64,000 nucleotides of DNA from the NCBI GenBank assembly GCA_951406725.2, contig CATOCA020000001.1, positions 10,478,001 to 10,542,000 on the forward strand, given 5' to 3'. Shown here piece by piece: positions 1,831-52,069 of this stretch. Below the pieces are notes generated by a model. It made no database searches. It worked only from the letters and a program-made list of their open reading frames with translations, and had not been told where the DNA came from. The DNA is from Octopus vulgaris. Its lineage: Eukaryota. Positions within the stretch are counted from its first letter, which is position 1, and every line of letters starts with the position of its first letter. A program made the translations under genes and the position numbers.

Positions 1831-1856
1831 TGTTTCCCAAATCTCAGAACAAGCAG
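1831..1856 (+). pseudogene. Truncated 26-nt exon cassette (FPKSQNKQ), frame-shifting
   Basis: 5' part of exon 21708 joined to a CAG|GTaaat donor; 26 nt is not divisible by 3. Confidence 0.55.
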
Positions 1857-3430: not shown

Positions 3431-3481
3431 ATTATGGAAGAGATTTCGCCAAAAGGACCCAACCCAGTTTAAAACATTATG
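3431..3481 (+). pseudogene. Exon cassette with donor GT>AT (YGRDFAKRTQPSLKHY)
   Basis: Paralog of 13728-13778; acceptor and frame intact; donor reads ATgagttt. Confidence 0.65.
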
Positions 3482-5074: not shown

Positions 5075-5161
5075 AACATTCAACAGCAAGTATAGTAACC
5101 GGAGCCAGTGCCGATTCCGGTTTACAATCATCTTCTGGAGTAGATGAATCAGAGGAAGAAT
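5075..5161 (+). CDS. Phase 1-1 micro-exon, 87 nt (EHSTASIVTGASADSGLQSSSGVDESEEE)
   Basis: aatattcatttcAG / GTaagtat, length divisible by 3, no stop. Confidence 0.7.
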
Positions 5162-8609: not shown

Positions 8610-8672
8610 ACACATAGTCGCAAACAATACTGTCTCAAAACTTTCCTATGCTTGAAACAGAATCATTTGATC
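8610..8672 (+). pseudogene. Dead 63-nt exon cassette
   Basis: Cassette flanks conserved, but acceptor is CG, donor is ATgagtat, and there is an in-frame TAG. Confidence 0.55.
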
Positions 8673-12125: not shown

Positions 12126-12151
12126 GGTTTCCCAAGTCTCAGAACAAGCAG
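12126..12151 (+). pseudogene. Truncated 26-nt exon cassette, second copy
   Basis: Duplicate of 1831-1856 with AG and GT present. Confidence 0.55.
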
Positions 12152-13727: not shown

Positions 13728-13778
13728 ATTATGGAAGAGATTTCCCCAAAAGGACCGAACACAGTTTAAGTCTTTATG
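13728..13778 (+). CDS. Phase 1-1 micro-exon, 51 nt (YGRDFPKRTEHSLSLY)
   Basis: aatattcatttcAG / GTgagttt, open frame. Confidence 0.7.
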
Positions 13779-15384
13779 GTGAGTTTTTAATTATATTACC
13801 TCATCGATTTCCATAAAGATTCTGTCATATTTCACTGATAGTAAATTTACCATGAGCTTATATGAAGTAAATTAGGTATTTACAGTTTGGGGGGACATTT
13901 GATATTTCTTTCCTCTACACCTGTGTAGAATTAATTATTACTCACTTGGGATGAAATCTATGTCATTAAGGTGTCTTCAAATATTTTCCACATCAGATGA
14001 CATTCTGATGTACGTAGATGTGGGCAGTTAAAATTAAAGATTACCAGCAGCAATGTTTCACAGAGAGAGTAGGTGCTTGTTGTTTGAAGTGAAATGGTGT
14101 GAAATGTATTTGAAGACAGATATTTGATGATTAACCTTGTTGACACTGGAGGTGAGCAGAAAATTATAAGAATGTTTGATTAGTGAGTTCTACTGTAGAT
14201 GTGAAAACGCCATGTCATTGATGCGTCACAAATACGCAGGTTGATGTGGGCAGTTAAAATCAAAGAGTACCAGAAGCAATATTTCACAGAGAGAGCAGTT
14301 GCTTTCTGTCTAACGGTAAGTGGTGTGACCAGTTTTTGTAGATCGATATATGGTTATCCACTTGCTTGACATTGGAGTTGAGCAGAAAACGAGAAGTTTG
14401 GTTCGTGAGGTTTACTACGGTAGAGGTGAAAACGTTATGTCATAAATGTGACAGAAATACCACCTTGACCATGATCGACTGACTGAGTGTATTGACGACA
14501 CTAGAAATCACAGTGCACCCTCCACTTCTGTCTTCATATTGACCTTCTCACCTACGTAGCATGTCGTATTTCGTCAAACACTCACTTTTGGATTCGCTCT
14601 CAGTGACCTCCTTTGCTCGTGTATATAACTCTCAACAACTGAGCATCTCTTAATATTTTCAGTGAGCTGGTTACCTGTCCCATCTGAAATTTTGTCATAA
14701 GTTTTTAGTGATGATGTCTCTCACACCTGATTTCCCTCTGATCGCCTCACTCTTGATGTGCAAATTTAGCAACACTCCCAAACCTCGATTTTTCGATTGT
14801 GCTTTGGGCCATTATCAGACTCACATCCTCCATCTTCGTTGTGTAACAGCTTTCAAACCTGTTGTAAATTGCCGGTAAATAGGTGTTGTTGAAGAGGTTT
14901 ATGTGGTTGGTCCAATCCGACTTCGTTTTGAGACCAACTTTCATATATCAACGCAATGTATTGTGACATCCAACATAATTTAACAATATTGCAATTACTT
15001 CACGTAATTATCTATTTATAGCAATGTTTTTCAGTAGTTGAGTTATCCTCTCTTTATACCTGTGCCTTAAACTCCCTGAAAATCAGAGAAATACGGAAGG
15101 AAAGAGAAAACTAAAAGCAAAATATTCTTATAAAGAGACAATGAAATTAAATAATTACAATATTGTTGAATTATATTTGATGTCTGAATACAAAGAGTAT
15201 AGATAGGAAATTAGTTAATATTTTGGTGGCTCTTAATATAGAGTTTTGTTATATTGAAAGCGTGCATAATGGTCAGCCGTTGACCATTGACAATAGAAAT
15301 AAGTCACAATAGTGAAATATAGATTATTAACAAAGATAAGCACATCATCCTATACAACGCAAACCTTGAAAATATTCATTTCAG

Positions 15385-15465
15385 ATATTCCAACACAAAT
15401 TCACAGTGCCAGTCCCGTTCCCCATTCTCAATTACATTCTGGAGTAGATGAATCAGAGGAAGATT
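15385..15465 (+). CDS. Phase 1-1 micro-exon, 81 nt (IPTQIHSASPVPHSQLHSGVDESEED)
   Basis: aatattcatttcAG / GTaagtat, open frame. Confidence 0.7.
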
Positions 15466-17260
15466 GTAAGTATGAAATAATTTCAAGTTACCGATTTCTA
15501 TACATTTCACCTTCTCCCGAGCTTTTGTATGTTAGAACGACTGAGTACAGATTCTATTCCTTAATTAGATTCGAAAGTTTTGTTGTATAATAATTCTATT
15601 CAATATATCGATATTACAGAAATTTCACAAAATATCCAACGAGGTTAGCGTGGTTTGTAAAATGAAAAATTGAAACGGGAATATATTTAGTATAGTTTTA
15701 AGAAAGAGAGAACTAAGCTAATTTGTTTAGGAATATAAATTTAGAGTTAATGACATCTGATGTGACATCTGATATTTCTTTCCTCTACACCTGTGTAGAA
15801 TTAATCATTACTCACTTAGGATGAAATCTATGTCATTAAGGTGTCTTCAAATATTTTCTACATGAGATGACATTCTGGTGAACGTAGATGTGGGCAGTTA
15901 AAATCAAAGATTACCAGCAGCAATGTTTCACACGGCGAGTAGGTGTTTGTAGTCTAAAGTGAAATGTATTTGAAGATAGATATTTGATGATTAACCTTGT
16001 TGACACTGGAAGTGAGCAGAAAATTATAAGATTGTTTGATTAGTGAGTTCTACTGTAGATGTGAAAACGCCATGTCATAGATGCGTCACAAATACGCAGG
16101 TTGATGTGGGCAGTTAAAATCAAAGATTACCAGAAGCAATATTTCACAGAGAGCAGGTACTTTCTGTCTAACGGTAAGTGGTGTGACCAATTTTTGTAGA
16201 TAGATATATGGTTATCCACTTGCTTGACATTGGAGTTGAGCAGAAAACGAGAAGTTTGGTTCGTGAGGTTTACTACGGTAGAGGTGAAAACGTTATGTCA
16301 TAGATGTGACAGAAATACCACCTTGACCATGATCGACTGACTGAGTGTATTGACGACACCAGAGATCACAGTGCACCCTCCACTTCTGTCTTCATCTTGA
16401 CCTTCTCACCTACGTAGGATGTCGTATTTCGTCAAACACTCACTTTTGGATTCGCTCTCAGTGACCTCCTCTGCTCGTGTATACAACTCTCAACAACTGT
16501 GCATCTCTAAATATTTTCAGTGAGCTGGTTACCTGTCCCATCTGAAATTTTGTCATAAGTTTTTAGTGATGATGTCTCTCACACCTGATTTCCCTCTGAT
16601 CGCCTCACTCTTGATGTGCAAATTTAGCAACACTCCCAAACCTCGATTTTTCGATTGTGCTTTGGGCCATTATCAGACTCACATCCTCCATCTTCGTTGT
16701 GTACCAGCTTTCACACCTGTTGTAAATTGCCGGTAAATAGGTGTTGTTGAAGAGGTTTATGTGGTTGGTCCAATCCGACTTCGTTTTGAGACCAACTTTC
16801 ATATATCAACGCAATGTATTGTGACATCCAACATAATTTAACAATATTGCAATTACTTCACGTAATTATCTCTTTATAGCACTGTTTTTCAGTAGTTGAG
16901 TTATCCTCTCTTTATACCTGTGCCTTAAACTCCCTGAAAATCAGAGAAATACGGAAGGAAAGAGAAAACTAAAAGCAAAATATTGTTATAAAGAGACAAT
17001 GAAATTAAATAATTACAATATTGTTGAATTATATTTGATGTCTGAATACAGAGAGTATAGATAGGAAATTAGTTCATATTTTGGTGGCTCTTAATATAGA
17101 GTTTTGTTATATTGAAACTGTAAAACGTGCTGTCCAAAAGCATAGTGGTCAGTCGTTGACCATTGACAATAGGAATATGTCACAATAGTGAAATATAGAT
17201 TATTAACAAAGATAAGCACATCATGTTATACAACGCAAACCTTGAAAATATTCATTTCAG

Positions 17261-17341
17261 ATATTCCAACACAAATTCACAGTGCCAGTCCCGTTCCCCT
17301 TTCTCAATTACATTCTGGAGAAGATGAATCAGAGGAAGATA
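17261..17341 (+). CDS. Phase 1-1 micro-exon, 81 nt (IPTQIHSASPVPLSQLHSGEDESEED)
   Basis: AG/GT intact; 3 nt different from 15385-15465. Confidence 0.7.
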
Positions 17342-18191
17342 GTAAGTATGAAATAATTTCAAGTTACCGATTTCTATACATTTCACCTTCTCCCGAGCTT
17401 TTGTATGTTAGAACGACTGAGTACAGATTCTATTCCTTAATTAGATTCGACAAGTTTTGTTGTATAATAATTCTATTCAATATATCGATATTACTGAAAT
17501 TTCACAAAATATCGAACGAGGTTAGCGTGGTTTGTAAAATGAAAAATTGAAACGGGAATATATTTAGTATAGTTTTGAGAAAGAGAGAACTAGGTTAATT
17601 TGTTTAGGAATATAAATTTCGAGTTAATGACAGCCATTTTTGTCACACTTTTTATCATGTTTACTTGAAGGTTATTATTGTTATTGTTGCTATTTGAACG
17701 GATGTTTCTCATAATCTAGAAGAATTATAATGAAATGCGTTCCAAGTGTAAACTCTCTGTTATGTTACACTGGTAGTAATTTTATTATTACATCCACTAC
17801 ACATTGTCTTTTCCCGAATAGAAAACATTTCTTTGCTACTGTGATAATCGGTATCTGCCTTTCTTACTTCATGAAAGATACAGGTTGCACGATGCAAGTG
17901 AATCACAGGCAACAGGCCGAACATTTCTCGTCAGATTTCCAGGCTCCTATGGACTAGATGAGTTGTCACTGTCCAAGTCAGTTCTTCTTCAGAACGAAAT
18001 TAGTTAATATTTTGGTGGCTCTTAATAAAGAGTTTTGTTATATTGAATCTGTAAAGCGTGCTGACCAAAAGCATAGTGGTCAGCCGTTGACCATTAAAAA
18101 TAAAGATATCTTACGGTAATGGAATATTTTTGATTGATAGATATAATCATATTATAGTGTAAAATGTAAAACTTGAAAATATATTTTTCCG

Positions 18192-18254
18192 ACACATAGT
18201 CGCAAACAACACTGTCTCCAAACTTTCCTATGCTTGAAACAGAATCATTTGATC
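18192..18254 (+). pseudogene. Dead 63-nt exon cassette, second copy
   Basis: Duplicate of 8610-8672 with the same lesions. Confidence 0.55.
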
Positions 18255-21200
18255 ATGAGTATAAAATATCATTACCTTATCGATTACTGTAAATTTTAAC
18301 TTTACTGAATGACTGACAACATCTTCCAATCCAAATTTTGCATTTGAAAAGTTTGATGCATAATAATTCTATTAAATATTCGTTGTGCAAGATTTTTTTA
18401 TGTGAAGTCGTTTGTTGAAACATATTATTATATTTCGGAATGGTCATTTTGCCAGTTTACCCAATAAAACATATCGATATTATTGTAATTTCACAAAATA
18501 TCCGATGTGGTGAGCATGGTTTGTAAAAGGGATAACTTCGAAGACAATAGATTTAATATTTCACTTTGGAAGAGAAAACTAATATTTGTAGTTGTTTAGC
18601 GATAAACATTCGTGTTAATGACATTTCTCTTTGTTTTACATTTTCTACTATGTTTGCTGATAGATTAATGTTGTTATTTTGGCTGATATTTCTAAAAAAG
18701 TACTTTGAAATGTATTTCAAGTATAAGCAGTCTGTTTTATTTCACAGATATTTCATTACATACGCTACACATTGCCCTTATCCAACTTACTTCTGTGATA
18801 GTTGTTGTCTATATTTCTTACTTCGAAACAGATACTGGTTGCAAGATACTATACAATAATTGACAATCTCTTCATCCTTCATCGTCTGATTACCACGCTC
18901 CCACCTCTTGAACGGATAGCAGACACATCTCAGTTAACCATTCTAGGTTTTATATGAGGGTATAATTTCCTAAAACCAACCATTTGATAAAGTGTCCTAG
19001 GTGCATTTTATTGTGGTACAAGTAAAAGAAACGTTGATGTCTTTCTAATAAAACCTCAAAGAAAGTCAGGAATTAAACTTTTAACTGAGAGATTGCAGCA
19101 AGAAGGAGGCAAGGGCAAAAACTGCATTATATAAGCATTATATAATAGTAAGGGTTTGTAGTATAAAATTGAAGGGATTTATGACTGATATAAGGCAGAA
19201 AGAGTTCACTTATGAAAGGAATCTGAATCACAATCAATTGGCCAATTGAAATTAGTTTCAATCCTTAATGACAAGCTTTACGTGGATGTACATGCTAAGA
19301 GATCACCTATACACCTACAAAATAATTGATATGTGATGGAAAGTGTGCAGAGGACTGGAAATCCCTGACTTTCTTGGTTTGAAGGACATGAAATGTCAAA
19401 CTGGGATCAACACAAAAAGAAGAATTGAAGTAATTGGAATGTTGTATGGCTCGATCGCTCTAAAGCATATGGTTGTGGACCATACAATTTATTGATGAAA
19501 TCAATGAACTTCTTTGACATACTGGGGCAATTTTAAGGTCTGATGATGAGCTGTTATAACAATTTCAAAAGGCAGCTCATTACAAACCATTTTACAGGGA
19601 CTGTCATCGGAATTGGAGCAGGGTGCACAATATTAATCCTTCAGTTTCGAGATGTTACTTAGATCAGTAGTCTGCTCAAAAGAAATGACCCAAGTGAAAG
19701 CACCAGACAAGACAGTCATGGATGACATAAAAATACTATGTAGAGACCAAAATGTTATGCAAATATTTCTGGATAGCCTGGGTGGACTGATTACTTTGTC
19801 AAGAATTTGACTTGAAGCAAATAAATAATACAATCTGTTATTTGTGGAAGATCAGCAGAACAAAGTGAAGTTCAAAGTAGCTGGAGAAACTATGCATACG
19901 TTTAGCTTTAAACTTATAAAAGTTTCGGCCAGTGTTGCGCTGCCTCTTTGTCCAATAATTGTAAGGGCATTAAGATGAAAACGAAAACATGGGAATGGGT
20001 TAAAAGAAAGAGAATATTCGAAACTTGCTGGCAAACGTAAGATTCAATGCTTCCAGTTTGATCTATATTTGCGTCATGCTTATATATGCTTAATTGTCAG
20101 TTATTGTGTATCATTGCGAATATGTTTATGCAATAGTATGTAGATGACCAGTTAAATGTAGTTAATAAGGTTTTGTGCAAGTGTACAATGTTTCAGGATA
20201 CCTGATGTCGCGATGTCAGATTGTTTGAAGTTGTCCAGTAATTAGAAATTGGTGTGCAGTAATTAATTGATTTATCTAATTTAGTAAAAAGTCGTTTCTG
20301 TTTTGTTTATTCGATAATTATTTACTTCATTCTCTGATAAAATTCGTGCTGGGGCGGGCTTATCTCAATTTTGTATGTCTATTATGTGTCGGAGAGAGAA
20401 ATCTTACCACATGTAGTTTAATTTCTACTCAGCCCTTTAATAGATCTATAACCAGAGGTAACTGGTTATAGCCTCAGTGAAAAATACAGATCTAACCCGT
20501 GAGATATTCCATTCTTTCATTTTGTTAATCATCACACAAGGAACTGCTAAAATGCTGCGTTTTGTTGTGTACGGCGGATTGTGGTAGCAGTCAGGGTAGA
20601 ATATGATATCTCTCCACCGTGCAGTTTGTAATTGTACATCTGATCTCCTTCTAGTGTTAACGACTTTTGTAATGGTCAAGTTAAACATTGCCAGATAATC
20701 ACGGATTTCTCTCTATAGTAGTAAGCTCAACTGGTGTATATCAGTATTTTCAGCTAGCGAGACTACTGGTGTAGCTATTTCTGTGTTTATCGACAATTAA
20801 TGGGACGGAAGTGTTTTGGAAATGGTGTTGTATGAACTGTGTGCAATATTTTAGTTAAATTAGGAAGATTTGAGTTATTATATCACGAATTATGTCGGAT
20901 GTTGCAGTTAAAAAATATTATCTCTTCATATCTTTTAACAATGTTTTAAACTTTTATTTTTGCTGTTGTCTTTTCTTAGATACAACATTAAATTTATCGT
21001 TCCATCCACTAAGCATTGTCTTTATCGAAGTAATGACTTTGGTTTTCTGCTGAGAAACCATTGTCTCTTTCTCTTTCAAGATAAATACTAGCTGCATATA
21101 ACAATACAATCGAATACATCCTCATCATTTATCGTCTGATGTTCTTTCTAAAATGTATTTGATGGGCGGTCTCTACCCAAGACACGTCCTATTCTGAGAT

Positions 21201-21707
21201 ACTATCCACCCCCATTGGTCGAGGAACATATGTCTCTTAAAGATACCCGCTTTTCTACCGATTGACTCTCAGGTTCAAGATCTGAAGCTCATTTCTCAAC
21301 ATTCCTTCCAGTTTTCTTGAGGTTCTCTCCACATTTACAGATCGGTGCTCTTTATACAGCTGATCTTATTCATACACATCACATGGTCATACTAGCACAG
21401 TCGTCTGTCTTGCGTACTACATACATGTGATAACTCTCGATTTTTATCTTAAAACATGTCAGCATTGTATACCTGCACACTGACAGTGACCATCCAGTGG
21501 AGCATGCTGTTTCCATTTTGTTCAAGACTTTACACGTCCTCTGTGTTCACAGCATATATTTCCCTACTATGTAGCATACACAGCTGTTCATACACAGGCT
21601 GCCCATTGATGATCAGAAACTCCAACAATAATAAAATATATATTATTAATATCTAGATATAAAATATTTTATAATAAAATTTAAAAACCTTGAAATATTT
21701 ATTTCAG

Positions 21708-21779
21708 GGTTTCCCAAGTCTCAGAACAAGCAAGTCCAGACAGAGGCATTTACTTCAAAAGATGCATCACAGCAAGTTG
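21708..21779 (+). CDS. Phase 1-1 micro-exon, 72 nt (FPKSQNKQVQTEAFTSKDASQQV)
   Basis: atatttatttcAG / GTgagtat, open frame. Confidence 0.75.
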
Positions 21780-22115
21780 GTGAGTATAAAATAACTAATT
21801 GAATTCTATCAATTTTACCTTCACCTGAGGCATTCATCGATTACTTAATAATACTAAGGAGAGATCAGAAGGATATGCAAATAATTCTGGTTAGACTGGA
21901 TTAACTCATTATTTGGGCAAAAGTGTGGTTTAAATCGAATAAGTAGTGCTGTGTATCGTTTGTAAATGATCAGCAGAAACAAGTGAAGTTACAAATAGCA
22001 GAGAAATCATGCCAAAAGCTTGAAGACAATGGTACGGTAGCTTGCTGAGAGACACGTCTTGAGGTAATAGGATCAAGGCACAAACTGTGATGCGGTTAAA
22101 AAACAACATATATAA

Positions 22116-22852
22116 ACTTTATATATTTAAAACTGAGAATGTGTGTCTGTCTGTCTGTCTGTCTGTGTGTTTCCCTAAAACTTGAGAACTACACAACCAA
22201 TTTCATTCAAATTTTACATATGCCTTACTTAGGGTCCGGGGAGTGTCATGGGCCAACGAAAATGTTCAACTTCTTGCCTAGAGCGAGCCCATAGCAATAT
22301 CATATCTTCTCCACTATTTCAGTATTACGTGTTAAAAGTGAAACAAAAATAATTCTCTATTTTATGTCAGATGCTTTCATTTTAACAATAAAAATAATAA
22401 TAACAATTGAATTATATGTAGTAAGTAATAATTAAAATCAAACTAAATTATAATATAATCGTAACATAACAAAAGGAAAAGTCGCAATTGGTATAAAATT
22501 GCATCAATGATTTGAACTAGAATAAGTGGTTTCACATGAATGGGAATTAAATTAAAAATAAAATTAGCGAGCAGAAATGGAATAGTCCAGATGGATAGTA
22601 AAAAGTTAAATTAAAGAAAAGACTATTGTCTATAAAGTATAAAATGCAGAGAAATAAGAAGAGCTAAAAATTCCAGTCTGTTATATATTTTGAGTATTGT
22701 TATCACTAGCGATATCAAGATATAACTTTGTATTTTGCATTTTATGTGTAGATGTATATTTATAGATATAAATGTAATATGTACACAAATATATACACAT
22801 ATATACATGCACTAGCACTATGACAACGGCAACGATGGGTCTTTAATGCTAG
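22116..22852 (+). mobile_element. Non-autonomous Helitron-like element (duplicate at about 28138-28875)
   Basis: 5' TATATA..(GTCT)n region, 3' CTAG|T terminus, interrupts older intron sequence. Confidence 0.5.
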
Positions 22853-22969
22853 TGCAAAATAAATTTGGCGCTTCCAGTTTGATTTATGTCTCTGTCTTGC
22901 TTATATATTCTTGAAAGTCAGTACTATTCCAAATATAATTCCTTTGCTGTAATAAGTAAATGAACGTTC

Positions 22970-23034
22970 ATATATATATATATACATATATGATACATAA
23001 ACATGTATATATATATATAATATATATAATATAT

Positions 23035-23081
<47 letters not shown>

Positions 23082-23083
23082 TA

Positions 23084-23125
<42 letters not shown>

Positions 23126-23250
23126 TATAAATATATATATCAACATACATCTATATATACATACATATACATATATACATTCACACACACATAAATATGT
23201 ATGTGTATGCGTGTGTGCGTGTGTGTATGTGCTTGTGTGTTTGTGTGTGT
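22970..23250. repeat. (TA)n/(TG)n microsatellite (paralog at 28993-29283)
   Basis: Directly visible. Confidence 0.95.
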
Positions 23251-23982
23251 ACAGATAATGAGTTTCTATACAAGAGTACCGTGTTTTGGGATACCTGATA
23301 TCACTTTCTGCTCCACTTGCTTAGGAGCAAACATTGTTCACCTGAAAATAACTGATTATTAAGGAGGATTAATGACATTGAAATATCTTCAAATGTTTCC
23401 AGAATCATATCCTATTCTGATGAATTGTGATGTGGGGATTTAAGGTTAAAGATTACCAGCAGTAACCTTTTAAAAAGAGAGCAGGTGTATATTAATCCTA
23501 CTTGATGTATTGTGACATGCGTTTATGGTTAGATGTTTGGAGTCCAGCTTCATTGACGTCAGAATGAGAAGAGGAGAAGAATGTTGATTAGAGAAATCTG
23601 CAGGTGATAAGACAAGGCCAAATCATTGATAGGGCTCCGACTGATGAAAGGGCAAATTAATCTAGGTGATTATCAGTGTTTTCAAATGAAAAATTAAAGA
23701 AGGTAATGATTAGATTATATAGATGTCTTAATAGGGTTATTGTTAGATTATGTAGGATGCCATAATTGGGATATATAGGAAGGTGAGTCTATTTAGTTGT
23801 GGACCTGTATATTGAGATATTACATGGTATTACTGTAGAAAGTATGAAAATGTCGACCCGAGCAGTACTGGTCACCAGCTGACCAGCAACGACAGGAATA
23901 CCTCACAAGAATAAAATTTTGATTATTAAGAAATATAAAGATGTTTTTCTATGAAGGGTAAAATTTAGAATATTTATTTCAG

Positions 23983-24033
23983 AGACGCCAGCACTTGTTG
24001 ACAATGAAGTTCAAACAGAAGTAGGACCAGTTG
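23983..24033 (+). CDS. Phase 1-1 micro-exon, 51 nt (TPALVDNEVQTEVGPV)
   Basis: atatttatttcAG / GTgagtat, open frame. Confidence 0.75.
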
Positions 24034-24379
24034 GTGAGTATAAATCAACATTACCTTTTTGATTTCTATCTAGTTTGCCATTACCTCATCTACTTTATTA
24101 AGGAGGATACGTGAGAAGTAAATGAGATATGTAAGATGTCTTAATTGAGAGCGGAGATTTAGGAATGCCAATCAATTTTGTTGAGGGCATCAATAATGGG
24201 CCCACTATCCGAAGTAGAGATGAGTAGCATATTGGAACCTGCATTAAGGAAATATAGGAAAATAATCCCTAAAATTTGGTTCATAATTTCCCCCCTGGCG
24301 TACAGCATGCTTCTAAAACCCCAAGATTCCGTGTTTGATTTCAGGCAGTGACGTGAATAATAATGATGATGATGATGAA

Positions 24380-24444
<65 letters not shown>

Positions 24445-24461
24445 TAATAATAATAATAATA

Positions 24462-26817
24462 GTTCAGCTGCTCAATGGAATTATGAGAGACCCAAAGAAA
24501 ACACCTGAATGGTTAGCACGTGGCATTACTTACCTACTCCCAAAGAATAACGAAACCAACCTTCCAAAAAACTATAGGCCTATAACCTGTCTATCCACCA
24601 CGTATAAAATCCTAACATCTATCCTGGCGGAGAAAACATATGCATTCATGGAGAAGAACGATATTCTCCCCATTGAACAAAAAGGGTGCCGCCGAGGCTC
24701 TTACGGATGCAAAGATCAACTGCTAATCAAGCGTATGATCCTTGAGAACTGTCACAACAAGCGCAGAAATTTCAGCACCGCATGGATTGACTATAAAAAG
24801 GCCTTCGACAGTATACCGCATCCATGGATCTTGAGATCGCTGGACATCTTCAAAATTTCCCCTGTGATTTCAAACTTCCTGAAGCACAATATGTCGTTGT
24901 GGAATACGAATCTCCAATTATACCACTCTAATGGAGTACTTGCCTAAGAAAATATAAACATCAACTGTGGAATTTTTCAAGGTGACTCACTTTCACCTTT
25001 AATATTCTGCATAGCCCTAATACCACTTACAAGTGAATTAAACAGAACAGGGTATGGGTATAAAATTGCCAATAAAAAAATAAGCCATCTATTTTATATG
25101 GATGACTTAAAACTTTATGGTAAAGACAATAATGAACTTGAAGGCCTATTGCACACCATGAAAGCATTCAGCGATGACATCGGGATGGAGTTTGGACTTG
25201 AGAAGTGTGCCAAGGCAACTTTCCAGAAAGGTAAAGTGAAGACCACAAATTCAGTCGTGTTAGATGTTGACACAGTCATAAGAGAGCTTGAGCAAGAACA
25301 AACATACAAATATTTAGGGATAAATGAAGGGTCTGGTATTCAGCATGCAAGCATGAAAGAGAAAATCAGGAAGGAATGTTATAGGAGAGTTCGTGCAGTC
25401 CTGAAATCTGAACTAAATGCACGTAACAAGGTGTTAGCTATAAATTCCTTAGCAGTTCTAGTTGTTACTTATAGCTACGATGTGTTGAACTGGAATATGA
25501 GTGAAGTAAAGAATATAGATAGAAAAATACGCAAGCTGCTGAGTTGTAATAGGATGCACTACCCAAAGGCAGACGTAGATCGCCTTTACCTTCCCAGAGC
25601 CCAAGAAGGTCGAGGCCTGATCCAATTTGAACTAGCTTACAAAACAACCACAATTGGACTGGCCAAATATCTCGAAATATCGAATGACTGGATGCTAAAG
25701 CTCGTGGAAAATCACGAGAGACGAAAGAAGCTTCATTCTATCATAAAGGAAAGCAAAAAATTTGCTATTGATCTCGTGCAGGATACCCAAACTGAACAAC
25801 CCGAGGGAAGTAGGGCAACTATTGTTGCAAAGAAGGTAAAAATGATGCCAATGAAGAAAGCGCACGAGCAATTGGCTGATAGGTGGGAGGAGAAACCTCT
25901 GCACGGCAAATATGTGACCCGCATCAAACAAGCTGATGTTGACCAGAAGCAAACCCATCAGTGGCTACGGAGCTCAGGGCTAAAAGCAGAGAGCGATGGT
26001 TTCATCCTGGCTGCTCAAGATCAAAGCCTATTAACCCGGAACTACCAGGCCAATGTGATGAAAAATGGAGCAGACCCAAAATGCCGATTCTGCAACGACA
26101 TGATTGAAACAGTGGACCACCTAATCTCTGGATGTAAAGTCTTAGCACCAGTGGAGTATAAATTAAGACATGACAGAGTTGGCCAATATCTCCACTGGCT
26201 AATAAGTCGGCATTACAATATCAAAACTGCCGACAAGTGGTATAATCACCACCCTGAGGCTGTAACTGAAGGAGAAAATGTAACCATTCTGTGGGACTTT
26301 CCAGTACATACAGACCGACCCATCAAGGCCAATAAACCAGATATTGTTGTGAAAGACCAAAACAATAAAGTTTGCTTATTGATCGACATGAGCATCCCCT
26401 GTGATCATAATATCTCAGCGAAAGAGTTTGACAAGCTCAGAAAATATAAAGACCTACTCATTGAAATTGAGAAAATGTGGCATCTCAAGGCAGTTACAAT
26501 ATCAGTGATCGTAGGAGCACTAGGAATGATCAAGAAGGGAACCGAAAATTATATGAGAATGATCCCTGGCTTACCAACCCTGCAAGAAGTGCAAAAGATT
26601 GTCTTAACTGGTACATCACACGTATTGAGAAGAGCATTGTCGATGTGAGAACTGTTGCTGCTCATGTATTTTAATTTAACTTTAAAAAAAAAAAAATGAA
26701 CGAACTACTGAGTTTGGTTTAATGGCTTACCAATGTATACTATGAGTTTCTTTGCCCTAGGAGTCGGGAAGACACTCGGCAAGAAATGGAAGAGAATTTG
26801 AAAGAAGAAAAAAAAGT
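24462..26817 (+). mobile_element. Dong/R4-clade non-LTR retrotransposon, 5'-truncated (RT, CCHC, restriction-like endonuclease)
   Basis: Motifs NYRPITCL, EQKGCRRG, AWIDYKKAFDS, GIFQGDSLSP, YMDD, CRFC..ETVDHLISGC, RHD, KPDIV, IVGALG. One in-frame TAA at 24945-47, with both ORFs in the same frame. (TAA)n on both flanks. Confidence 0.9.
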
Positions 26818-26870
26818 AATAATAATAATAATAACAACAACATCGAAAAATACCTTAGGAATTTCCCCAA

Positions 26871-26916
26871 AGCACCTGATGAAGGCTGCAGGGTATAACA
26901 GCCGAAACGTTGTGCT
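26871..26916 (+). ncRNA. Minimal type-I hammerhead ribozyme in a Penelope-type pseudo-LTR
   Basis: AGCAC-CTGATGA-A-GGCTG(loop)CAGCC-GAAAC-GTT-GTGCT: intact core, stem II, palindromic AACGTT stem III, stem I AGCAC/GTGCT. Confidence 0.7.
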
Positions 26917-26959
26917 AACAACAAACAAGATCAGGCCATATATTTAAATAAGGTAAATA

Positions 26960-28120
26960 ATTTTAGATAGCAGTTCCTAAAGAACCATTGTAATGGTACG
27001 AGAATGGTGTTTGTTGATGCCATGTGTCGCAGGCTATAAGGCATGGAAAATGATGGGAATATACAAGAGATGTACAGTGACCTAAAGCGAAATCAACCAT
27101 TCCCAGCCATGGACAGTTTGAAATGCCGAATGAAACGAAGAATCAAAATATTTCAGCTTAGTGATTTCATGAAGAAAGAGGAAGAAAGAAGTTGAGAGTT
27201 GTGTAAAGAAAGTAAGAGTTTAGAGTGCAACACGAGGTGATGCTGTACCACAGAACGTATAGAAACGTTGTACTCAGTTATGTTATAAGCATAACCTGGA
27301 AGAAGAGATTTGGGGTATAAAGGTGAACCGATTGATGACCTGTACATACAAGAAAGTGTTTACTTACCAAAGCAAGTGGCAGCAGGACAATTTCAATAGA
27401 GAATGGTAAGGTTTACATGGGCTTAGATATCAGCTACATATCTATAAAAGAATGGCTATCTGAGTAAATGTGTCCGGAGGACTGGAATCACCGGACCTCC
27501 AGCGTGTGCGCAACAAGCATTTTCAATCTGGAATTAATGCAAGAAGGAAAGGAGAATATAACTGATTTGAAAGATGTATGGCCTGATCTGGCTAATGCTT
27601 ATTGTTCTATACCATAGAAATGGTTGATGGAAGCAATGAACGATTAATAGGAGATTAAAGATCTGATTAGGAGCTGCTATAATGATTTCACAATGCGGTT
27701 CATCACAGAAAATGTTACAACACACTGGCATCGTGTTGAGACAGGAATTTGAATAGCCGTATGTTGACAATATGAGCCATTTGGTTTGAGATGGTTATGA
27801 GGATGTTACTTATATCAGCAGAAAGGGCTCAAGTGAATTACAACAAGAAGGCATTCATGGATTACTTAATAATACTAAGGAGAGATCAGAAGGATATGCA
27901 AATAATTCTGGTTAGACTGGATTAACTCATCATTTGGGGCAAAAGTGTGGTTTAAATCGAATAAGTAGTGCTGTGTATCGTTTGTAAATGATCAGCAGAA
28001 ACAAGTGAAGTTACAAATAGCAGGAGAAATCATGCCAAAAGCTTGAAGACAATGGTACGGTAGCTTGCTGAGAGACACGTCTTGAGGTAATAGGATCAAG
28101 GCACAAACTGTGATGCGGTT
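26960..28120 (+). mobile_element. Degenerate Hero/NeSL-like non-LTR RT fossil
   Basis: WPDLANAYCS, RFIT, AFMDY remnants with frameshifts. Confidence 0.6.
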
Positions 28121-29022
28121 AAAAAACAACATATATAAACTTTATATATTTAAAACTGAGAATGTGTGTCTGTCTGTCTGTCTGTCTGTGTGTTTCCCTA
28201 AAACTTGAGAACTACACAACCAATTTCATTCAGATTTTACATATGCCTTACTTAGTGTCCGGGGAGTGTCATGGGCCAACGAAAATGTTCAACTTCTTGC
28301 CTAGAGCGAGCCCATAGCAATATCATATCTTCTCCACTATTTCAGTATTACGTGTTAAAAGTGAAACAAAAATAATTCTCTATTTTATGTCAGATGCTTT
28401 CATTTTAACAATAAAAATAATAATAACAATTGAATTATATGTAGTAAGTAATAATTAAAATCAAACTAAATTATAATATAATCGTAACATAACAAAAGGA
28501 AAAGTCGCAATTGGTATAAAATTGCATCAATGATTTGAACTAGAATAAGTGGTTTCACATGAATGGGAATTAAATTAAAAATAAAATTAGCGAGCAGAAA
28601 TGGAATAGTCCAGATGGATAGTAAAAAGTTAAATTAAAGAAAAGACTATTGTCTATAAAGTATAAAATGCAGAGAAATAAGAAGAGCTAAAAATTCCAGT
28701 CTGTTATATATTTTGAGTATTGTTATCACTAGCGATATCAAGATATAACTTTGTATTTTGCATTTTATGTGTAGATGTATATTTATAGATATAAATGTAA
28801 TATGTACACAAATATATACACATATATACATGCACTAGCACTATGACAACGGCAACGATGGGTCTTTAATGCTAGTGCAAAATAAATTTGGCGCTTCCAG
28901 TTTGATTTATGTCTCTGTCTTGCTTATATATTCTTGAAAGTCAGTACTATTCCAAATATAATTCCTTTGCTGTAATAAGTAAATGAACGTTCATATATAT
29001 ATATATATATATATACATAAAC

Positions 29023-29065
<43 letters not shown>

Positions 29066-29074
29066 TGATACATA

Positions 29075-29112
<38 letters not shown>

Positions 29113-29124
29113 TGATACATAAAC

Positions 29125-29157
<33 letters not shown>

Positions 29158-30012
29158 TATAAATATATATATCAACATACATCTACATATACATACATAT
29201 ACATATATCCATTCACACACACATAAATATGTGTGTGTGTGCGTGTGTGCGTGTGTGTATGTGCCTGTGTGTTTGTGTGTGTACAGATAATGAGTTTCTA
29301 TACAAGAGTACCGTGTTTTGGGATACCTGATATCACTTTCTGCTCCACTTGCTTAGGACAAACATTGTTCACCTGAAAATAGCTGCTTATTAAGGAGGAT
29401 TAATGACATTGAAATATCTTCAAATGTTTCCAGAATCATATCCTATTCTGATGAATTGTGATGTGGGGATTTAAGATTAAAGATTACCAGCAGCAACCTT
29501 TTAAAAAGAGAGCATGTGTATATTAATCCTACTTGATGTATTGTGACATGCGTTTATGGTTAGATGTTTGGAGACCAGCTTCATTGACATCAGAATGAGA
29601 AGAGGAGAAGAATGTTGATTAGAGAAATCTGCAGGTGATAAGACAAGGCCAAATCATTGATAGGGCTCCGACTGATGAAAGGGCAAATTAATCTAGGTGA
29701 TTATCAGTGTTTTCAAATGAAAATTAAAGAAGGTAATGATTAGATTATATAGATGTCTTAATAGGGTTATTGTTAGATTTTGTAGGATGCCATAATTGGG
29801 ATATATAGGAAGGTGAGTCTATTTAGTTGTGGACCTGGATATTGAGCTATTCCATGGTATTACTGTAGAAAGTATGAAAATGTCGACCCGAGCAGTACTG
29901 GTCACCAGCTGACCAGCAACGACGGGAATACCTCACAAGAATAAAATTTTGATTATTAAGAAATATAAAGATGTTTTTCTATGAAGGGTAAAATTTAGAA
30001 TATTTATTTCAG

Positions 30013-30063
30013 AGACGCCAGCACTTGTTGACAATGAAGTTCAAACAGAAGTAGAACCAGTTG
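30013..30063 (+). CDS. Phase 1-1 micro-exon, 51 nt (TPALVDNEVQTEVEPV)
   Basis: AG/GT intact; duplicate of 23983-24033 with one substitution (G>E). Confidence 0.75.
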
Positions 30064-30361
30064 GTGAGTATAAATCAACATTACCTTTTTGATTTCTATC
30101 AAGTTTGCCATTACCTCATCTACTTTATTAAGGTGGATACGTGAGAAGTAAATGAGATATGTAAGATGTCTTAATTGAGAGCGGAGATTTAGGAATGCCA
30201 ATCAATTTTGTGGAGGGCATAAATAATGGGCCCACTGTTGAAAGTATATAAATATTGACCGAAACCTGTGTGAACTCTTGATGATAGGAATCTCTCACAA
30301 TAACAGAATATAGATTATTGTAATGATAAAATGGTTTTAGTGTAAATAATATTTATTTCAG

Positions 30362-30415
30362 AGAATCTAAAGCTTGAAGGGAAATAAGTGCAGACGATGG
30401 TAGCAGAGCCAGTTG
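30362..30415 (+). pseudogene. Dead 54-nt exon cassette (NLKLEGK*VQTMVAEPV)
   Basis: AG intact, in-frame TAA (probably from CAA), donor ATaagtat. Confidence 0.65.
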
Positions 30416-31207
30416 ATAAGTATAAAATAACAGCCCACAAATGTCTATTTTGCCTTTGTTTCTATGGCTGCCTCATGTGTCGATAGAGAAAATGGTGAAA
30501 TACGACAGAGAGTGATCTGGGAGGGAGGGTTAGTTTATAAGTTTGTGAAAGGAAGTAGTAGAGGAAGGAGGAATGGTGGATATGTTTGGGAATGAGAAAC
30601 AGTAGGGCATCATATGTGCATGTAGGTACATGAGGGAGAATGGAAGAGAATGCGACATGTGCGGGGGAGGCATTGTTGGGGGACAAACAGGCGCTTATGC
30701 CCTTGATTTAGGTTGGTGGTTGTTCTCAAGCACAGCAAACTGCCAAGTGACTGTTAGGCTCAACATTTCAAGATCATTACTCACCATTTCGTCCCATTCT
30801 TCCTGGGAGTTCATTAGGGAAATCTGGAGGTGAGAGAACAATGCCATATCATAGACTGGGCTCCGATAGATGAAAGGGAAAATTAAGCTAAGAGATAATC
30901 AGTGTTATCAAGTGATAATTATATAAGATAATTATTAGATTATGTAGATATCTTAATAGAGTGATCTTAGATTATGTGGGATGTCTTAATATGGAGATAT
31001 ATGAAGGTTAGTCTATTTAGTGGTGGACCTGAATATTGAGTTATTACATGGTATCCCTATAGGAAGTATGAAAATGTTGACCCAAGCCGTAAGGGTCACC
31101 AGTTGACCATCAAGGACAGGAATGTCACAGAATAACAAAATTTTGATTATTAATTAAGATAAAGACATTTTTCTGTAAAGTGTAAAATTTAGAAAATTTT
31201 GTTTCAA

Positions 31208-31258
31208 TTACTTTAACGCTTGTTGACAATGAAGTCCAAACAGAGGTGGAGCCAGCTG
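31208..31258 (+). pseudogene. Exon cassette with acceptor AG>AA (TLTLVDNEVQTEVEPA)
   Basis: tttcAA acceptor, intact GTgagtat donor, open frame; an in-frame upstream AG at 31191-92 could substitute. Confidence 0.6.
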
Positions 31259-31789
31259 GTGAGTATAAATTGCCAATACCTTATTGATTTCGATCAATTT
31301 TACCATTATCCAAACAACTTTGTTTGACAGAATGACTGAGAACAAGTTCTTTTGCTACATTTATTTCGAATGGTTAGCTACACATTTTTTTTCTATTCTT
31401 GTACAACTACAGGAATATCCAAGAAATGGATTTTATAGTAAAGTGGAAGCATCAGATATTCTTCCACTCAGAAAAAAGGCGTCTCAAGATAAGGAGAAAT
31501 ATGCAAAAGATAAAATATAAACCCTTAAGCGGTTCTGTCCCTTTAAGGAGAATAAATACCGTCTGTCATCTCAATTTAGTCTCTCTCGTCCTCTCCCTTT
31601 TTCGCTCTCTTCCACTCCCTTTGTATACAACAAGCAGCAGCTCCTCTCGTTCCCAGTCAAGTAACCACATCAATTTGTTTTTTAAAATATTGTTATTATT
31701 GAAATTTAATAAAATGTCCACCAAGGTTATCGCTGTTGGCAAAATGGCTAAATTAGAAAACAGAATAGAGTTAATATTGTCCTTTGGGA

Positions 31790-32000
31790 AGGTGGTGAGC
31801 TGGCAGAAACATTAGAACGCCGGGCGAAATGCTTAGCTTTACTTCATCTGTCTTTACATCCTAAGTTCAAATTCCACCGAGGTCGATTTTGCCTTCCATC
31901 CTTTCGAGGCCGATAAATTGAGTACCAGTTGCGTACTGGGGTCGATCTAATCGACTGACTCCGTCGCCAAAAGATTCTGGCCTTGTGCCTAGAGTAGAAA
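31790..32000 (+). mobile_element. tRNA-derived SINE (related minus-strand copy at about 57120-57280; fragment at 62345-62450)
   Basis: ggtggtgagctggcagaa A-box-like head, gttcaaattcc B-box, agtaccagttgcgtactggggtcgat body. Confidence 0.7.
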
Positions 32001-34429
32001 ATGATATTGTCCTTTAGAATAGGAACTAAAAGGATTTTGTTGTTTAAAGGTAAACGGGTGATTTAATGACAAAGTGTTTGTTCGTTTTACATTTTTAGTA
32101 AGCTTACTGATTGATTATTGTTGTTGGTGCTTTTGCTTAACCAGATGTTATGGTGAAACTTGTTCCAATAGTGAACAGCCTGGTTTTTTTTCACTGTCAT
32201 TACGTCCACTATTCAACCATTACATCTATTCAATATTGCCTTTATTCAAGTAGAAGGCTGTTTTGCAGCTCAGACAAACTCTCTCTCTCTCTCCGCCTTT
32301 CTTTGTTTCTCTCTTTTTCTCTCTCTCTCTCTTTCTCGCTCCCTTTCACTATCTGCAAGTTTCAATACAGTAAATGATATCATCCTCTCCCTTTTATCAT
32401 CTGCTCTCTATGCTCCCATGTACTGGATGGGTGGTCACTGTCCATGTCATAACAGTAAACTACCCATAATGATTGCTTGAGGATTACCTCTCAATTAACC
32501 ATTCCAGCTTTTTCATGGTGGTATGCCCTTCTTATCACCAACCACTTTACAAAGGGTCCTGGGTGAATATAATTGTGGCACAAACACTACAAGAGATTGC
32601 CATGTCCTCGGCAAGATTAAACCTCCCTCTCAACCTTACGGTGTCAATTCTCATCCAACAACCACCTCCTAGTGTGTAGTGGGAGCATTTGATCATAGCA
32701 CCAGCATTAGTGAGGTTGTGTCACATTCCAAATTATTAGAAAGTTAGTCCTCACTACTCTATGATGTGTTTGTTCACTGATATGTTTAAGATGGGAGAAG
32801 AAGAGATTATAGAAGAATCGGAATGCAAAGACTAAAAGATACGAGACAATAAGGATAAAAAAAGTGATTCGAAGGAGCGGTGGAGGCTGACAACAGTAAA
32901 TGATGGAGACTGAGTTACAACGGTGTGTGAGGTACCAGAGTGCTTAATTATTTATTAACATTCCTTGGTTGCTCACTCTCACTGTTTCTCTTGCCCTCCT
33001 CCTCTCACTGGGTAATCATGTATGTCTTCTACTATAGGACACCTGTTTCAATCCCTCTGTCACAGTCGAACCTGTCATCCCCTGACACACGACCACCTCC
33101 TCCTCCAATGCTCTCCCTCTCAAAGGTTTTTTGTCTTGCAAGTTCTTTGGTGACCCCCACCAGTGCTTGTGGATCCAGACCCCACTGTAAGGTTGTTGGT
33201 GTTGGGAAGAGTATCCAGCTGTAAAATCCTGCCAAATCAGACAGTGAAGCCTGGTGCATTCTTCTCCCTAGCCAGCCCCTGACAAAACGTACAAACCCAG
33301 CCAGAATGGGGAACCGACGTTCAATGATGATAGTGGTAGTGATGGTAGGTAGCGATGGATACTAATTACTTGCAAATACATCAAAGTTATACATGTTAAA
33401 TTAGGAGATAGACTGACCAAATCTCAACTGAGATAATGGATAATTACAGGTTTCTGGATTGCCATAAATACTAGTAATTACTAAAAGATCACATGGGTAA
33501 TTACAGGGTTATATATTTCTGTGAATATTTTCATATATATCTGTATATTTGTAAAACACTAATTAGTATTTTAAATCAGAGCATTTAGAATTAGCCCAGC
33601 ATTAAGGAAGTGGAGTGCAGAAAGTTATTGACTATAAATTATCAATAATTATTCGTTATCTCTAAATCGGTAAAAGGCAATTTCTGTTTTGTTTATTCGA
33701 ATTTTATTTACCTCATTCATTCATAGAATTGGTGTTGGGGCTAATCTAATTTTTAACGTCTAACATGGGGTCAGGGAGAGAGAGAGAGCGAGAGAGAGAG
33801 AGAAAGAGAGAGATCATAAATCTTACGATTGGTCGTGTAATAGCTACTCAGGCCATATTTAGTACTCACATACATACACACACACATATATAACAATACG
33901 CAGCTGGTCACAGCCTCCGTAAAAAACACCCAGATCTAACCCGTCAAATATTCCATTCTTTCATCTTGTTAAACATCACAGAGTTAACTTACAAAATACA
34001 GTGTTTTGTTTTGTGGGGTGGAGTGTGGTAGCAGTCGGGATGCAATAAATTATTTCCTCATTGTTCAGTATGTGGTTGTACATGTGTAGACCTTCTAGTA
34101 TTAACCACAATTGAAGTGGTCAAGGTATACATAGCCAGATCATCATGGATATCGCTCTTCAGTAACAAACTCCGCTGGTGTATATCAGTGTTTTCAGCTT
34201 GTAACCCCACTGATGTCGCTATTTCCGTGTTTATCTACAATAAATGAAATGGAAAGTGTCTTGAAAATGGTGTGGTAGGAATGTTGTGCAATGTTTTCGT
34301 TAAATTGAGAAGATTTGATATTTTTTGTGACTCGAATTGCGTAGGAAGTTGCTGTTACAAATTAATATTACCCATTCATGTCTTTTGAAAATTTAATATA
34401 ATTTTATTTCTGTTGTTATTGTTATTCAG

Positions 34430-37306
34430 ATGATCACTACATGCAGATACCACGTTTTGACTGTAAAAGTATTATGAAGTCGCATTCATCCAAATTCCGT
34501 CCCCTTTGCCCAGCTGTGTCCAAAATATTGCAGCTCACAGACTCCGATAATGATTCCAAGAACCTGGTCACAGTTTCAAGAATCGTTGAAATCTGCAATG
34601 GAATAGTAACCTATTCACCAGATTTGAAGTTAATAAGTTGTGCCACAACAGGCGGTGATTTTGATTTTCATTGTTCTTCTAATGTCACAGACATGACAAG
34701 AATTGGTGAACACACTGTTCTAGCCACAATTCCTTTCCGCAAGAAAATAGTTTTCATTAATCCATCAAGTTTCCACATAAAATCTCTGGATTATAGTTTC
34801 TTTACAATTTCTATTTCGAACATTCTACATTTGTAGGGACTGAAATGTTTAGTAAGACAATATATCTCATAGACTGGGATAAAAATAAATTTGAAGAAAA
34901 ATTTAGTGTGCAAGAAATTGTTGGAAACATAGCAGTTGGTCCACAGTATCATATCTTAATAGCCTTAGCTAATATAAATAGAATTAGCTGTTACACAATA
35001 GATGGCAGACACTTGTTTCAGTTGAGGACCCATTCCATCGATATTCCAACCGACCTTACCGTATATCGAAATTATTCTTACGCTCTGCAAGGAAATGTAA
35101 TTTACAAGATTTCAGCAAACGGTGCTGTGTCCCAAAGAGAAATTGGGATAAAAGCTCGATATATTTGTGTGGCAACAAATAATATTTACTTGACTGACCG
35201 TTTTGGTCTTGTACATATTATTAGGACAAATAAAGATTTTTGGCCTCGGCTGTCTTACCATCACCAAGACCATGTCCCGAGCCTGATAAACCAAATCCAT
35301 ATTGATGACCCCTCCAACATTACAACGATTCTACCTATGTCAGCCTCTTCAGTAGTAATTATATATCGGGATCTAAAAGCTATATTAGTTACTGGCGAAG
35401 GGCAACCGTTTGGTGGAAAATGTTTAACCTTTAAACTCCAGCCTTCTGTTTTCTGCAGAGTGGATTCGAACACATTTATTGTCCTTTTTAGTGAGGACAG
35501 GAAACTTCAATATGTTACCTGTCCACAACTAACTGAAGGTGATTTAATAGACGTCGAAAACAATTACATTCAAATGTGTCATATGGTATCAAATAGGTGT
35601 TTGGCTCTGACCACCAATGAAGGTAACGTGGAGGTACATATTTTATTGATTAAAACGGATCATGTCGACATTGTAAACAGAATTTCATTGGAACATGACA
35701 ATGTCGCCATTGCTGCTACTCCAATTAATTTTGTAGTTGTAGACAGAAAGAAACGTAACTTGATATTTTATTCAAGCTTTGGTGAGGAGCTTTCCAAGAA
35801 ACACATTGAGTTCAATGGCTATCCTCATCATGTTTTCACAGACAAATTATACTTCTATGTTATCTTCAGGAGAGAGTCTTTGATGACTTGTTACAATATA
35901 ACTGGACAAAGGAAATGGCAGTTGAAACTTCCTTCAAACTTTCGCTGTCACGCTGCTGTTTTCCAAGGAACAGCTTATGTGCTGGACGATCTGCTCAGTC
36001 GGATTCTTCTTTACAAGTACCATGACTGGTCAGACTGTCATGTAACCTTTCAAAACCCTTATAATAAAAATCTAAATATTCGACTCGAAGAAAAGGAGAA
36101 TGACCAAGTTCTCATTGGTGAAATATGTCATCTGGCAAATGGACAGTTGGTGTTGTCCGACATATATAATGATTGTTTGTTATACATTTCCAACGAAGGG
36201 AACATTGTGTCTAGATTATCTCTGCCGTCTACAGCTACAGATATATGTCGATGGAATTATAATCAGATAGGCGTCACATTACCTCTAGAGAAGCAATTAC
36301 GGGTCTTCGGAAACGTATCAAAGACAGTTATATGTGTAGCATTAAACCAGGCTTATGTACGGGTGTGTAAGCTGGGTGAAAGTCATATTATTTGTTATTG
36401 CGATAAACCATCGCATTTAGATATTTTAAACATTAACAATTGTAATCAAGTTCAAATAATTCATAAAATTAATATTCCTTTTGTAATGAAATCATTATCG
36501 TTAGAAAATGAAACACTAAAACTATTGATTGTTGGTAAGAAAACAGTATTCTTCTACAAGATCACCAGGAGGAGGACGAGGGGGAGAAAGAGGAGGAGGA
36601 GAAGACGTGTTTTACCATCCCAAGTGAAAACACCCTCCAATCTCTATGGTTATGACGGTGGTCCTTATAGCATTGAGATGATACCCAATATTTTACTGTC
36701 GCAAGGGAAAACACAATCCAATCTCTATGGTGGACGTATTGATAAAATGTGTGTCCATTTGATAGACAACAGCCGCATGTTTGCTGTAAATGAGCATGAC
36801 TTGCTGGTGAAAGATCATGTCACAAGAAGCCAAATTAACATGTTCATCGATCTGGTAGATGTATTTTCTAGAAACATCAGTCTCAGTGAAATGTTGTCTT
36901 CTAGATTGTATCTACAAGATCTCACTGTTTCTGATAAAGCTCATGAAGTTGTTGTCCCTCAAAGTTTTGGAGATAAACATCCAGTGGAGATTGGTTGTTT
37001 GGTTATTACAGAAAATAACCTGGTTGCTTTATATGACAGCACAAATGAAAACATTAAGATATTAACTTTTGATGGTCAACTTGTTGACTCTATCAAGTTA
37101 AATGTTGTCCCTAGACATATGTGTTGCTGGCGATCAAACACATTGGTTATAACGACCAATAACTATCAACTTCTGACATTAAAAGTGGAATTCCCATTGG
37201 TCTTGGCAACTTACCACACGGAAAATAGATACAATTGTATCGCTTGTCGATCCGACAATCTACTGGTGTGTAGCAGCAGCAGCAGCAGCAGAAGCAGTAG
37301 TAGTAT

Positions 37307-37342
<36 letters not shown>

Positions 37343-49495: not shown

Positions 49496-49499
<4 letters not shown>

Positions 49500-49529
<30 letters not shown>

Positions 49530-49760
49530 ACGCATTCTGTCTCTCTCTCTCTCTCACTCTCATTCTTTCTCTGCTTCCTCATACATTAATATATCCCTCC
49601 CCTTCCCTAGGCTTTCTCTCTCTCACTCTTTCTTCCTTCCTTTCTCTCTCTCTCTCTCTCACGCATTCTGTCTCTCTCTCTCCCACTCTCATTCTTTCTC
49701 TGCTTCCTCATACATTAATATATCCCTCCCTTCCCTAGGCTTTCTCTCTCTCACTCTTTC

Positions 49761-49808
<48 letters not shown>

Positions 49809-49896
49809 ACTCTCACTCCCACTCTCTGCTTCCTCATACATTAATATATCCCTCCCCTTCCCTAGGCTTTCTCTCTCTCACTCTTTCTTCCTTTCT

Positions 49897-49935
<39 letters not shown>

Positions 49936-51912: not shown

Positions 51913-52069
51913 TACGCTATACTTTACATTGTTATCATGAAGGACACTTTAAGAAGCTTCTGGAGAAATATAGTCCAGTTGGGGATCAAATGTGATGCTA
52001 GAAATAACAGCCAAGTATGTTAAAGTTTGGTTTTGTGTTTCATATGAAAATGAAGGACACTTCGAAACT

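Follow-up and report, generated by a model that had tools for sequence, protein, structure and literature searches.

Duplicated micro-exons with candidate LC8 motifs, related to a death-domain exon, in the linker of octopus ankyrin-RING genes

Introduction

TRIM proteins share a RING-B-box-coiled-coil tripartite motif, and MIB1 and MIB2 possess an N-terminal Mib-Herc2/ZZ module. Pairing of client proteins can also be provided by LC8, which, as described in passages of PMC12017986, binds two client chains side by side in parallel orientation and lends stability to weak dimers nearby. Of 19 peptides predicted by a matrix in PMC6607443, LC8 bound only 7. Among measured binders in DataSheet1 of PMC12057147, ZFPM1 (1.6 uM), Pac11 QT2 (0.62 uM) and Bmf (0.7 uM) resemble the octopus consensus described below (Asp at -4, Lys at -3, then VQT).

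Here we analyse a window of 64,000 nucleotides from Octopus vulgaris (contig CATOCA020000001.1, positions 10,478,001 to 10,542,000), in which a sequence-only reading had proposed that exon duplication multiplies LC8-type motifs in a propeller protein. The families to which this locus relates are an ankyrin-RING-death family and a multi-propeller family of octopus; judged by paper listings, we found no description of either in the open-access literature.

Results

The host gene is broader than a propeller protein. Upstream of the window lie ankyrin exons at -27.3 and -15.3 kb, a following exon at -12.8 kb, an intact C3HC4 RING exon at -6.3 kb and a linker exon at -4.8 kb, and a propeller-only product was rejected because of this ankyrin-RING gene. 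Between RING and propeller, the host linker consists of low-complexity, phase 1-1 micro-exons. Continuity from RING to propeller was traced through annotated models P0193, P0224 and P0008 and individual joins, not through one spanning contig. The closest named proteins are from Octopus, and most relatives are ankyrin-RING-linker-death proteins, predicted to act as ubiquitin ligases. A death-domain query of the genome returned 136 matches, and nine loci end in a large propeller exon instead of a death domain; no death-domain remnant was found in the window or in the sequence examined around these nine loci.

The features of the window are listed below. RNA-contig joins, here and throughout, derive from four runs taken as RNA by inference, none of which is recorded as RNA.

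1831-1856 (+): truncated copy of the 21708 exon, breaking just before the VQT codons; the next GT lies at a shifted phase, and read-through reaches a stop after 5 codons.
3431-3481 (+): linker exon copy, 51 nt, without a GT donor.
5075-5161 (+): intact linker exon, 87 nt, phase 1-1, Ser/acidic; LQS at 5113, weak as an LC8 candidate; RNA-contig join at 5161.
8610-8672 (+): dead exon copy with CG acceptor, stop and AT donor; second copy at 18192-18254.
12126-12151 (+): second truncated copy of the 21708 exon.
13728-13778 (+): intact linker exon, 51 nt, QT motif absent; join 13777 to 15384.
15385-15465 (+): intact linker exon, 81 nt; TQI with Pro at -2, an unlikely LC8 site; RNA-contig joins.
17261-17341 (+): duplicate of the 81-nt exon at 15385, with the same poor motif; join 17341 to 21708.
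21708-21779 (+): intact 72-nt exon, the best LC8 candidate (Lys at -3, VQT, Glu at +2; motif 21725-21745).
23983-24033 (+): intact 51-nt exon with VQT anchor and Asn at -3; motif 24000-24020, binder status uncertain.
24357-26648 (+): non-LTR retroelement reverse-transcriptase frames, intronic, between the two duplicated blocks.
30013-30063 (+): duplicate of the 23983 exon; motif 30030-30050, in a block 97.8% identical.
30362-30415 (+): dead exon with a stop at motif position -2 and an AT donor.
31208-31258 (+): VQT exon with an AA acceptor in the window copy; the exon type is spliced in RNA contigs.
34430-39305 (+): terminal exon for tandem NHL-like beta-propellers, lacking one base near 34810-34813; RNA-contig joins to 34429.

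As assembled, the terminal exon reads from its acceptor for 134 aa before the frame ends and would yield a product truncated within the first propeller; the proposed dimerisation of propellers is therefore not supported for this copy as it stands. Propeller exons read to the common end at two of eight loci (1611-1613 aa). The same frame gap near 34810 occurs at C31:4.67 Mb, which makes a random assembly error unlikely as its cause, and the frameshift could still be a polymorphic allele. At 34810 the extra base is present in all four runs, three of which also have the window-specific base at 35057; the window locus may therefore be intact in other animals.

The multi-propeller family has 133 genomic matches, mostly on C28, and 57 proteins, all named Octopus or Argonauta. 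Sites in assembly G000 include C28 (mainly 2-25 Mb), C27:8.4-8.6 Mb and C25:23372277, with the window copy at 34430-39305. Many members are open frames near 1800 aa with tandem NHL-like propellers behind an N-terminal domain of their own, of which we found no remnant upstream of 34430. No Pfam family scored above its cut-off in this family, and sequence matches to NHL were weak (E 0.04-0.09). The predicted model of P0008 (97% identical; pLDDT 72) consists of tandem propellers whose top structural matches are NHL domains; its first propeller aligns with Brat NHL at Z 21.0 and rmsd 3.2 over 238 residues, and Atlas NHL clusters match at 0.90. An Atlas search with P0189 gave no usable match.

All eight peptides cited by the sequence-only reading are present on the + strand of the window, with motifs starting at 21725, 24000, 30030, 31225, 30379, 15387, 17263 and 5113; the coordinates originally reported for them are exon starts. 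Three of the eight, in the exons at 21708, 23983 and 30013, are credible as LC8 sites. Each peptide lies in a short segment with a shared acceptor 5' and a GT(A/G)AGT donor 3', an intact pattern from which 30362 and 31208 deviate. Intact exons (AG/GT, phase 1-1, no stop) number seven in the window: 5075, 13728, 15385, 17261, 21708, 23983 and 30013.

Candidates were judged by residue classes as we interpreted them from section 9 of PMC6607443. The anchor rule (Gln at 0, flanked at -1 and +1 by polar or hydrophobic residues of medium size, with Pro absent inside the motif) admits 21708, 23983 and 30013 and excludes 15385, 17261 and 5075. Exon 21708 also passes every other position rule, whereas 23983 and 30013 have a small residue, Asn, at -3. 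The motifs of 15385 and 17261 were rejected for Pro at -2, and that of 5075 for combining Leu at -1 with a small residue at -3, although entries in PMC12057147 suggest that Leu at -1 is perhaps tolerated. Those of 30362 and 31208 were rejected since both lie in broken exons. Where counterparts of 30362 were found (8 of the 9 loci examined), all have a stop and no GT donor; the acceptor of 31208 is AA in the window and two paralogues and AG in five other paralogues. A loose QT pattern matched nine times in the six frames of the window, four times in these exons and five times elsewhere. Over 151 residues, linker composition falls on the disordered side in a charge-hydropathy test (0.421 versus a boundary of 0.466), which speaks to composition only.

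Comparison with known clients separates these candidates further. Motifs of the family consensus, which resemble several measured micromolar binders, are somewhat more likely than not to bind LC8. For the 23983/30013 motif, the Asn at -3 has two precedents among the entries of PMC12057147 that we compared, and they point opposite ways. Nup159 QT5, which agrees with the 23983 motif at 6 of 8 positions, binds weakly, at 13.1 uM; a Nup159 segment identical to the 23983 motif from -3 to +1 is labelled a non-binder, a label that is second-hand, and is an AlphaFold false positive. Binding of LC8 by the 23983/30013 motif is something we lean slightly against. In the window, 21708 is the likely LC8 binder, and 23983 and 30013 would at best be weak and dependent on avidity. 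The octopus LC8 gene itself is intronless and encodes 89 aa (L127:1489-1758). It lies within the L127 stretch, G000:C25:23625837-23629088. The single-exon relative most similar to the window propeller exon (65%) is some 250 kb away, a proximity that is probably coincidental.

Exon duplication, as originally proposed, is evident from the blocks 21828-24206 and 27849-30236, which are 97.8% identical. Between one and six intact exons of the 23983/31208 type occur per locus across nine loci, in agreement with the suggestion that copy number varies. Elsewhere in the window are further non-LTR reverse-transcriptase frames (62741-63820, -) and tandem arrays at 46883-47908, 49497-51022 and 51196-52008, repeating every 121, about 131 and 171 bp, respectively.

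The expectation that splicing varies motif number was likewise supported, by spliced joins and skipping in RNA contigs and by annotated isoforms with 0-4 motifs. Joins were observed from 15463 and 17341 to 21708, 21778 to 23982, 24032 to 30012, 30063 to 31208, 30062 to 34429 and 31257 to 34429; most are bounded by GT..AG, and their short side has 20-50 letters. They occur in three of the four runs and not in run X8; individually, 21778 to 23982 was seen in three runs and 30062 to 34429 in two. The contigs may stem from any paralogue, such that they reflect exon skipping and paralogue differences together. By gene, annotated isoforms contain 0-2, 2-4, 1-3, 1-2, 2-4 and 1 motifs, with one off-register match discounted; which isoforms belong to one gene we deduced from their contigs and names. 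In O. sinensis, model P0224 ends in a truncated-exon read-through (compare 1831 and 12126 of the window), giving a short ankyrin-RING form without propeller.

An alternative reading is that the motif functions in the death-domain branch and the Asn -3 version of the propeller subfamily does not bind, its copies being passengers of recent segmental duplication; we place it a little short of an even chance. The non-binder label on the near-identical Nup159 segment and the small residue at -3 favour it, as do the near-identical blocks flanking a retroelement, the six of eight propeller exons that fall short of the common end, and Q>E variants, which we found in two paralogous exons and in P0008/P0194. 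Against it stand the measured affinity of Nup159 QT5 despite its Asn at -3, the retention of VQT in 18 of 20 exons of the 23983 type, and the splicing of Asn -3 exons to the propeller exon. Such passengers would be compatible with our preferred explanation, an LC8 cassette derived from death exon 1, for the remaining family.

Evidence for that derivation comes from the exons and their flanks. Linker exons and death-domain exon 1 have acceptor region, donor region and phase in common, and intron-flank scores to death exon 1 have a median of 46 versus 15.5-17 in 400+400 controls. In the window gene, scores to death exon 1 are 31-46 for linker exons, 19 for the ankyrin acceptor and 24.5 for the propeller acceptor. 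The 72-nt linker types are 53-64% identical to death exon 1 in register, versus 34-36% after codon shuffling; exon 21708 matches it in length and phase, with 53% identity. Death exons form one clade in an unrooted tree (support 95), with Lys or Arg at -3 in 44 of 51 and Gln at 0 in 6 of 51. The death-domain fold is old, and from fold age, not from a root, we infer that the death exon is the parent of the linker exons. Given the common flanks, phase and sequence, a duplicated death exon 1 is the probable source of the motif. We regard the exon-duplication anatomy and the kinship of linker exons with the death exon as all but settled.

For a family-wide census, we took 80 of the 136 death-domain rows, sampled the 10 kb preceding each and pooled these regions with loci similar to the window exons; the remaining rows comprised stop-ridden C1 arrays, small-exon-only matches and some loci already sampled. 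The C1 matches (G000 C1:216930502-216965055 and C1:102708438-102734549) run in tandem over linker and death domain with no intron-sized gap and are possibly processed or collapsed copies. Of 249 intact exons in the sample, 171 are linker exons, which fall into 20 types; the rest are 51 copies of death exon 1 and 27 other exons. An LC8-type anchor is present in 104 of the 171 linker exons, always in one of nine registers, compared with a background of 158 in 85,439 windows of propeller-family proteins and none in the 51 death exons. When flanks are included (large or basic -3, polar -4, non-hydrophobic +2), 50 of the 171 pass all position rules. Linker exons were found in 51 of the 80 upstream regions, of which 11, 17, 18 and 5 have 0, 1, 2 and 3 anchors, counts that are lower bounds. 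Because the register is fixed across the family, chance occurrence of the motifs is excluded, a conclusion for which the window alone is insufficient.

One motif per symmetric exon, as first suggested, holds for these phase 1-1 exons with their fixed register. Strict conservation of QT does not: 67 of 171 exons have no anchor, with repeated anchor loss in the C29 clade. On C29, linker exons form tight tandem arrays spaced 152-166 bp apart (for example G000 C29 24097059-24098374, L090), with up to 8 linker exons per gene, some cut to 36 nt without motif. Over the 20 types, the least variable of 13 columns are 0, -3, +1 and -1, and position -1 alternates among V, T, S and M.

Codon tests of constraint at K-3/V-1/Q0/T+1 were mixed, with support across exon types. 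We estimated omega with our own MG94-type likelihood, since IQ-TREE codon runs removed absent codons from the model and were dropped. With one sequence per type, omega was 0.34-0.44 in the motif versus 0.70-0.86 elsewhere in 10 of 10 draws (p 0.002-0.035; the draws are not independent). Pooling 93 sequences gave 0.76 versus 0.98 for other codons, which is not significant (p 0.13). Without the C29 clade, a post hoc split, the values were 0.44 versus 0.86 (p 0.001), and in that clade alone 2.7 versus 1.6, with motif codons changing faster than neutral; this could mean that sites were lost under selection, or that gene conversion has distorted the tree. For 54 sequences chosen by death-domain position alone, omega was 0.50 versus 0.75 (p 0.051, or 0.013 with a flank-only tree). 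A parsimony test was not significant for motif versus other codons (p 0.073) or versus introns (p 0.26). Constraint across types but not in the pool suggests a motif held over the deep radiation and dispensable in many recent copies.

The same data bear on whether the linker exons are neutral spacers, that is, decaying duplicates of death exon 1 that set length only and whose LC8 likeness was copied from one chance ancestor. Non-motif codons near neutrality (omega 0.75-0.98), the many dead exon copies, the non-significant pooled test and the repeated anchor losses on C29 are what such decay would produce, and Lys at -3, at times with Gln at 0, was already present in death exon 1. We nevertheless consider it unlikely, as motif codons are constrained across long-stemmed exon types and show synonymous change at those same codons, changes at -1 stay mostly within LC8-allowed residues, and LC8-type motifs recur in O. 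bimaculoides gene models. Service of the constrained residues to another partner or a splicing enhancer, to which the constant motif-to-acceptor distance might point, is improbable, because third codon positions in the motif vary as freely as intron sites, arguing against a nucleotide signal, and the constraint falls on the very positions by which the LC8 motif is defined in the section of PMC6607443 used here.

Discussion

The proposed link to LC8 finds more support in the family at large than in the peptides listed earlier. The octopus ankyrin-RING linker is a set of duplicated phase 1-1 micro-exons akin to death exon 1, many with one likely LC8 motif. As an explanation of the linker as a whole, we consider the following slightly more probable than not. 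A duplicate of death exon 1 would have lost helix-forming residues, kept Lys at -3 and gained VQT. Immediately after the RING, LC8 dimers could then hold two chains side by side in parallel, and chains joined in this way would pair RINGs together with death or propeller domains, much as TRIM ligases are paired by a coiled coil. Pairing raises the activity of RING ligases of this type. With one candidate motif per small exon, exon number and splicing would set the sites per protein, and exon gain, loss, skipping and point decay may tune that number.

We put forward the full proposal only tentatively: in octopods, a death-exon duplicate may have become an LC8 cassette whose copy number and splicing act as a dial for ankyrin-RING dimerisation, and one branch may have swapped the death domain for NHL propellers, yielding a TRIM-NHL-like ligase with LC8 in place of the coiled coil. 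If true, one genome would contain both a parent exon and its graded descendants, so that the emergence of a short linear motif out of a folded-domain exon could be followed. Exon number and splicing would in that case also have produced LC8 clients ranging from 0 to about 7 sites, a ready-made series for testing ligase activity against valency.

The arrangement resembles ASCIZ/ATMIN and Nup159, which in the accounts given in PMC12017986 and PMC6607443 have several QT-anchored motifs, strong and weak mixed, in a disordered stretch between folded domains. In contrast to both, the octopus proteins have one predicted motif per symmetric exon, in numbers that vary by paralogue and isoform, and the motif exon is akin to a death-domain exon.

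Mind bomb (MIB1/MIB2) is the database label for the relatives, and the likeness extends to ankyrin repeats followed by a zf-C3HC4_3 RING in Pfam scans of relatives. Unlike MIB1/MIB2, the three relatives scanned (P0191, P0070 and P0186) have no Mib-Herc2 or ZZ, and the octopus proteins have a single RING, then the micro-exon linker, then a death domain or propellers. With TRIM-NHL proteins (Brat, TRIM2/3, TRIM71), the window gene would share a RING and a propeller modelled as six-bladed and NHL-type. It differs in that no B-box family was found by Pfam in P0193, P0191 or P0070, in a predicted disordered linker where TRIMs have a coiled coil, in ankyrins before the RING and in several propellers in tandem. 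The octopus ankyrin-RING-propeller architecture is instead a joining of two unrelated octopus families.
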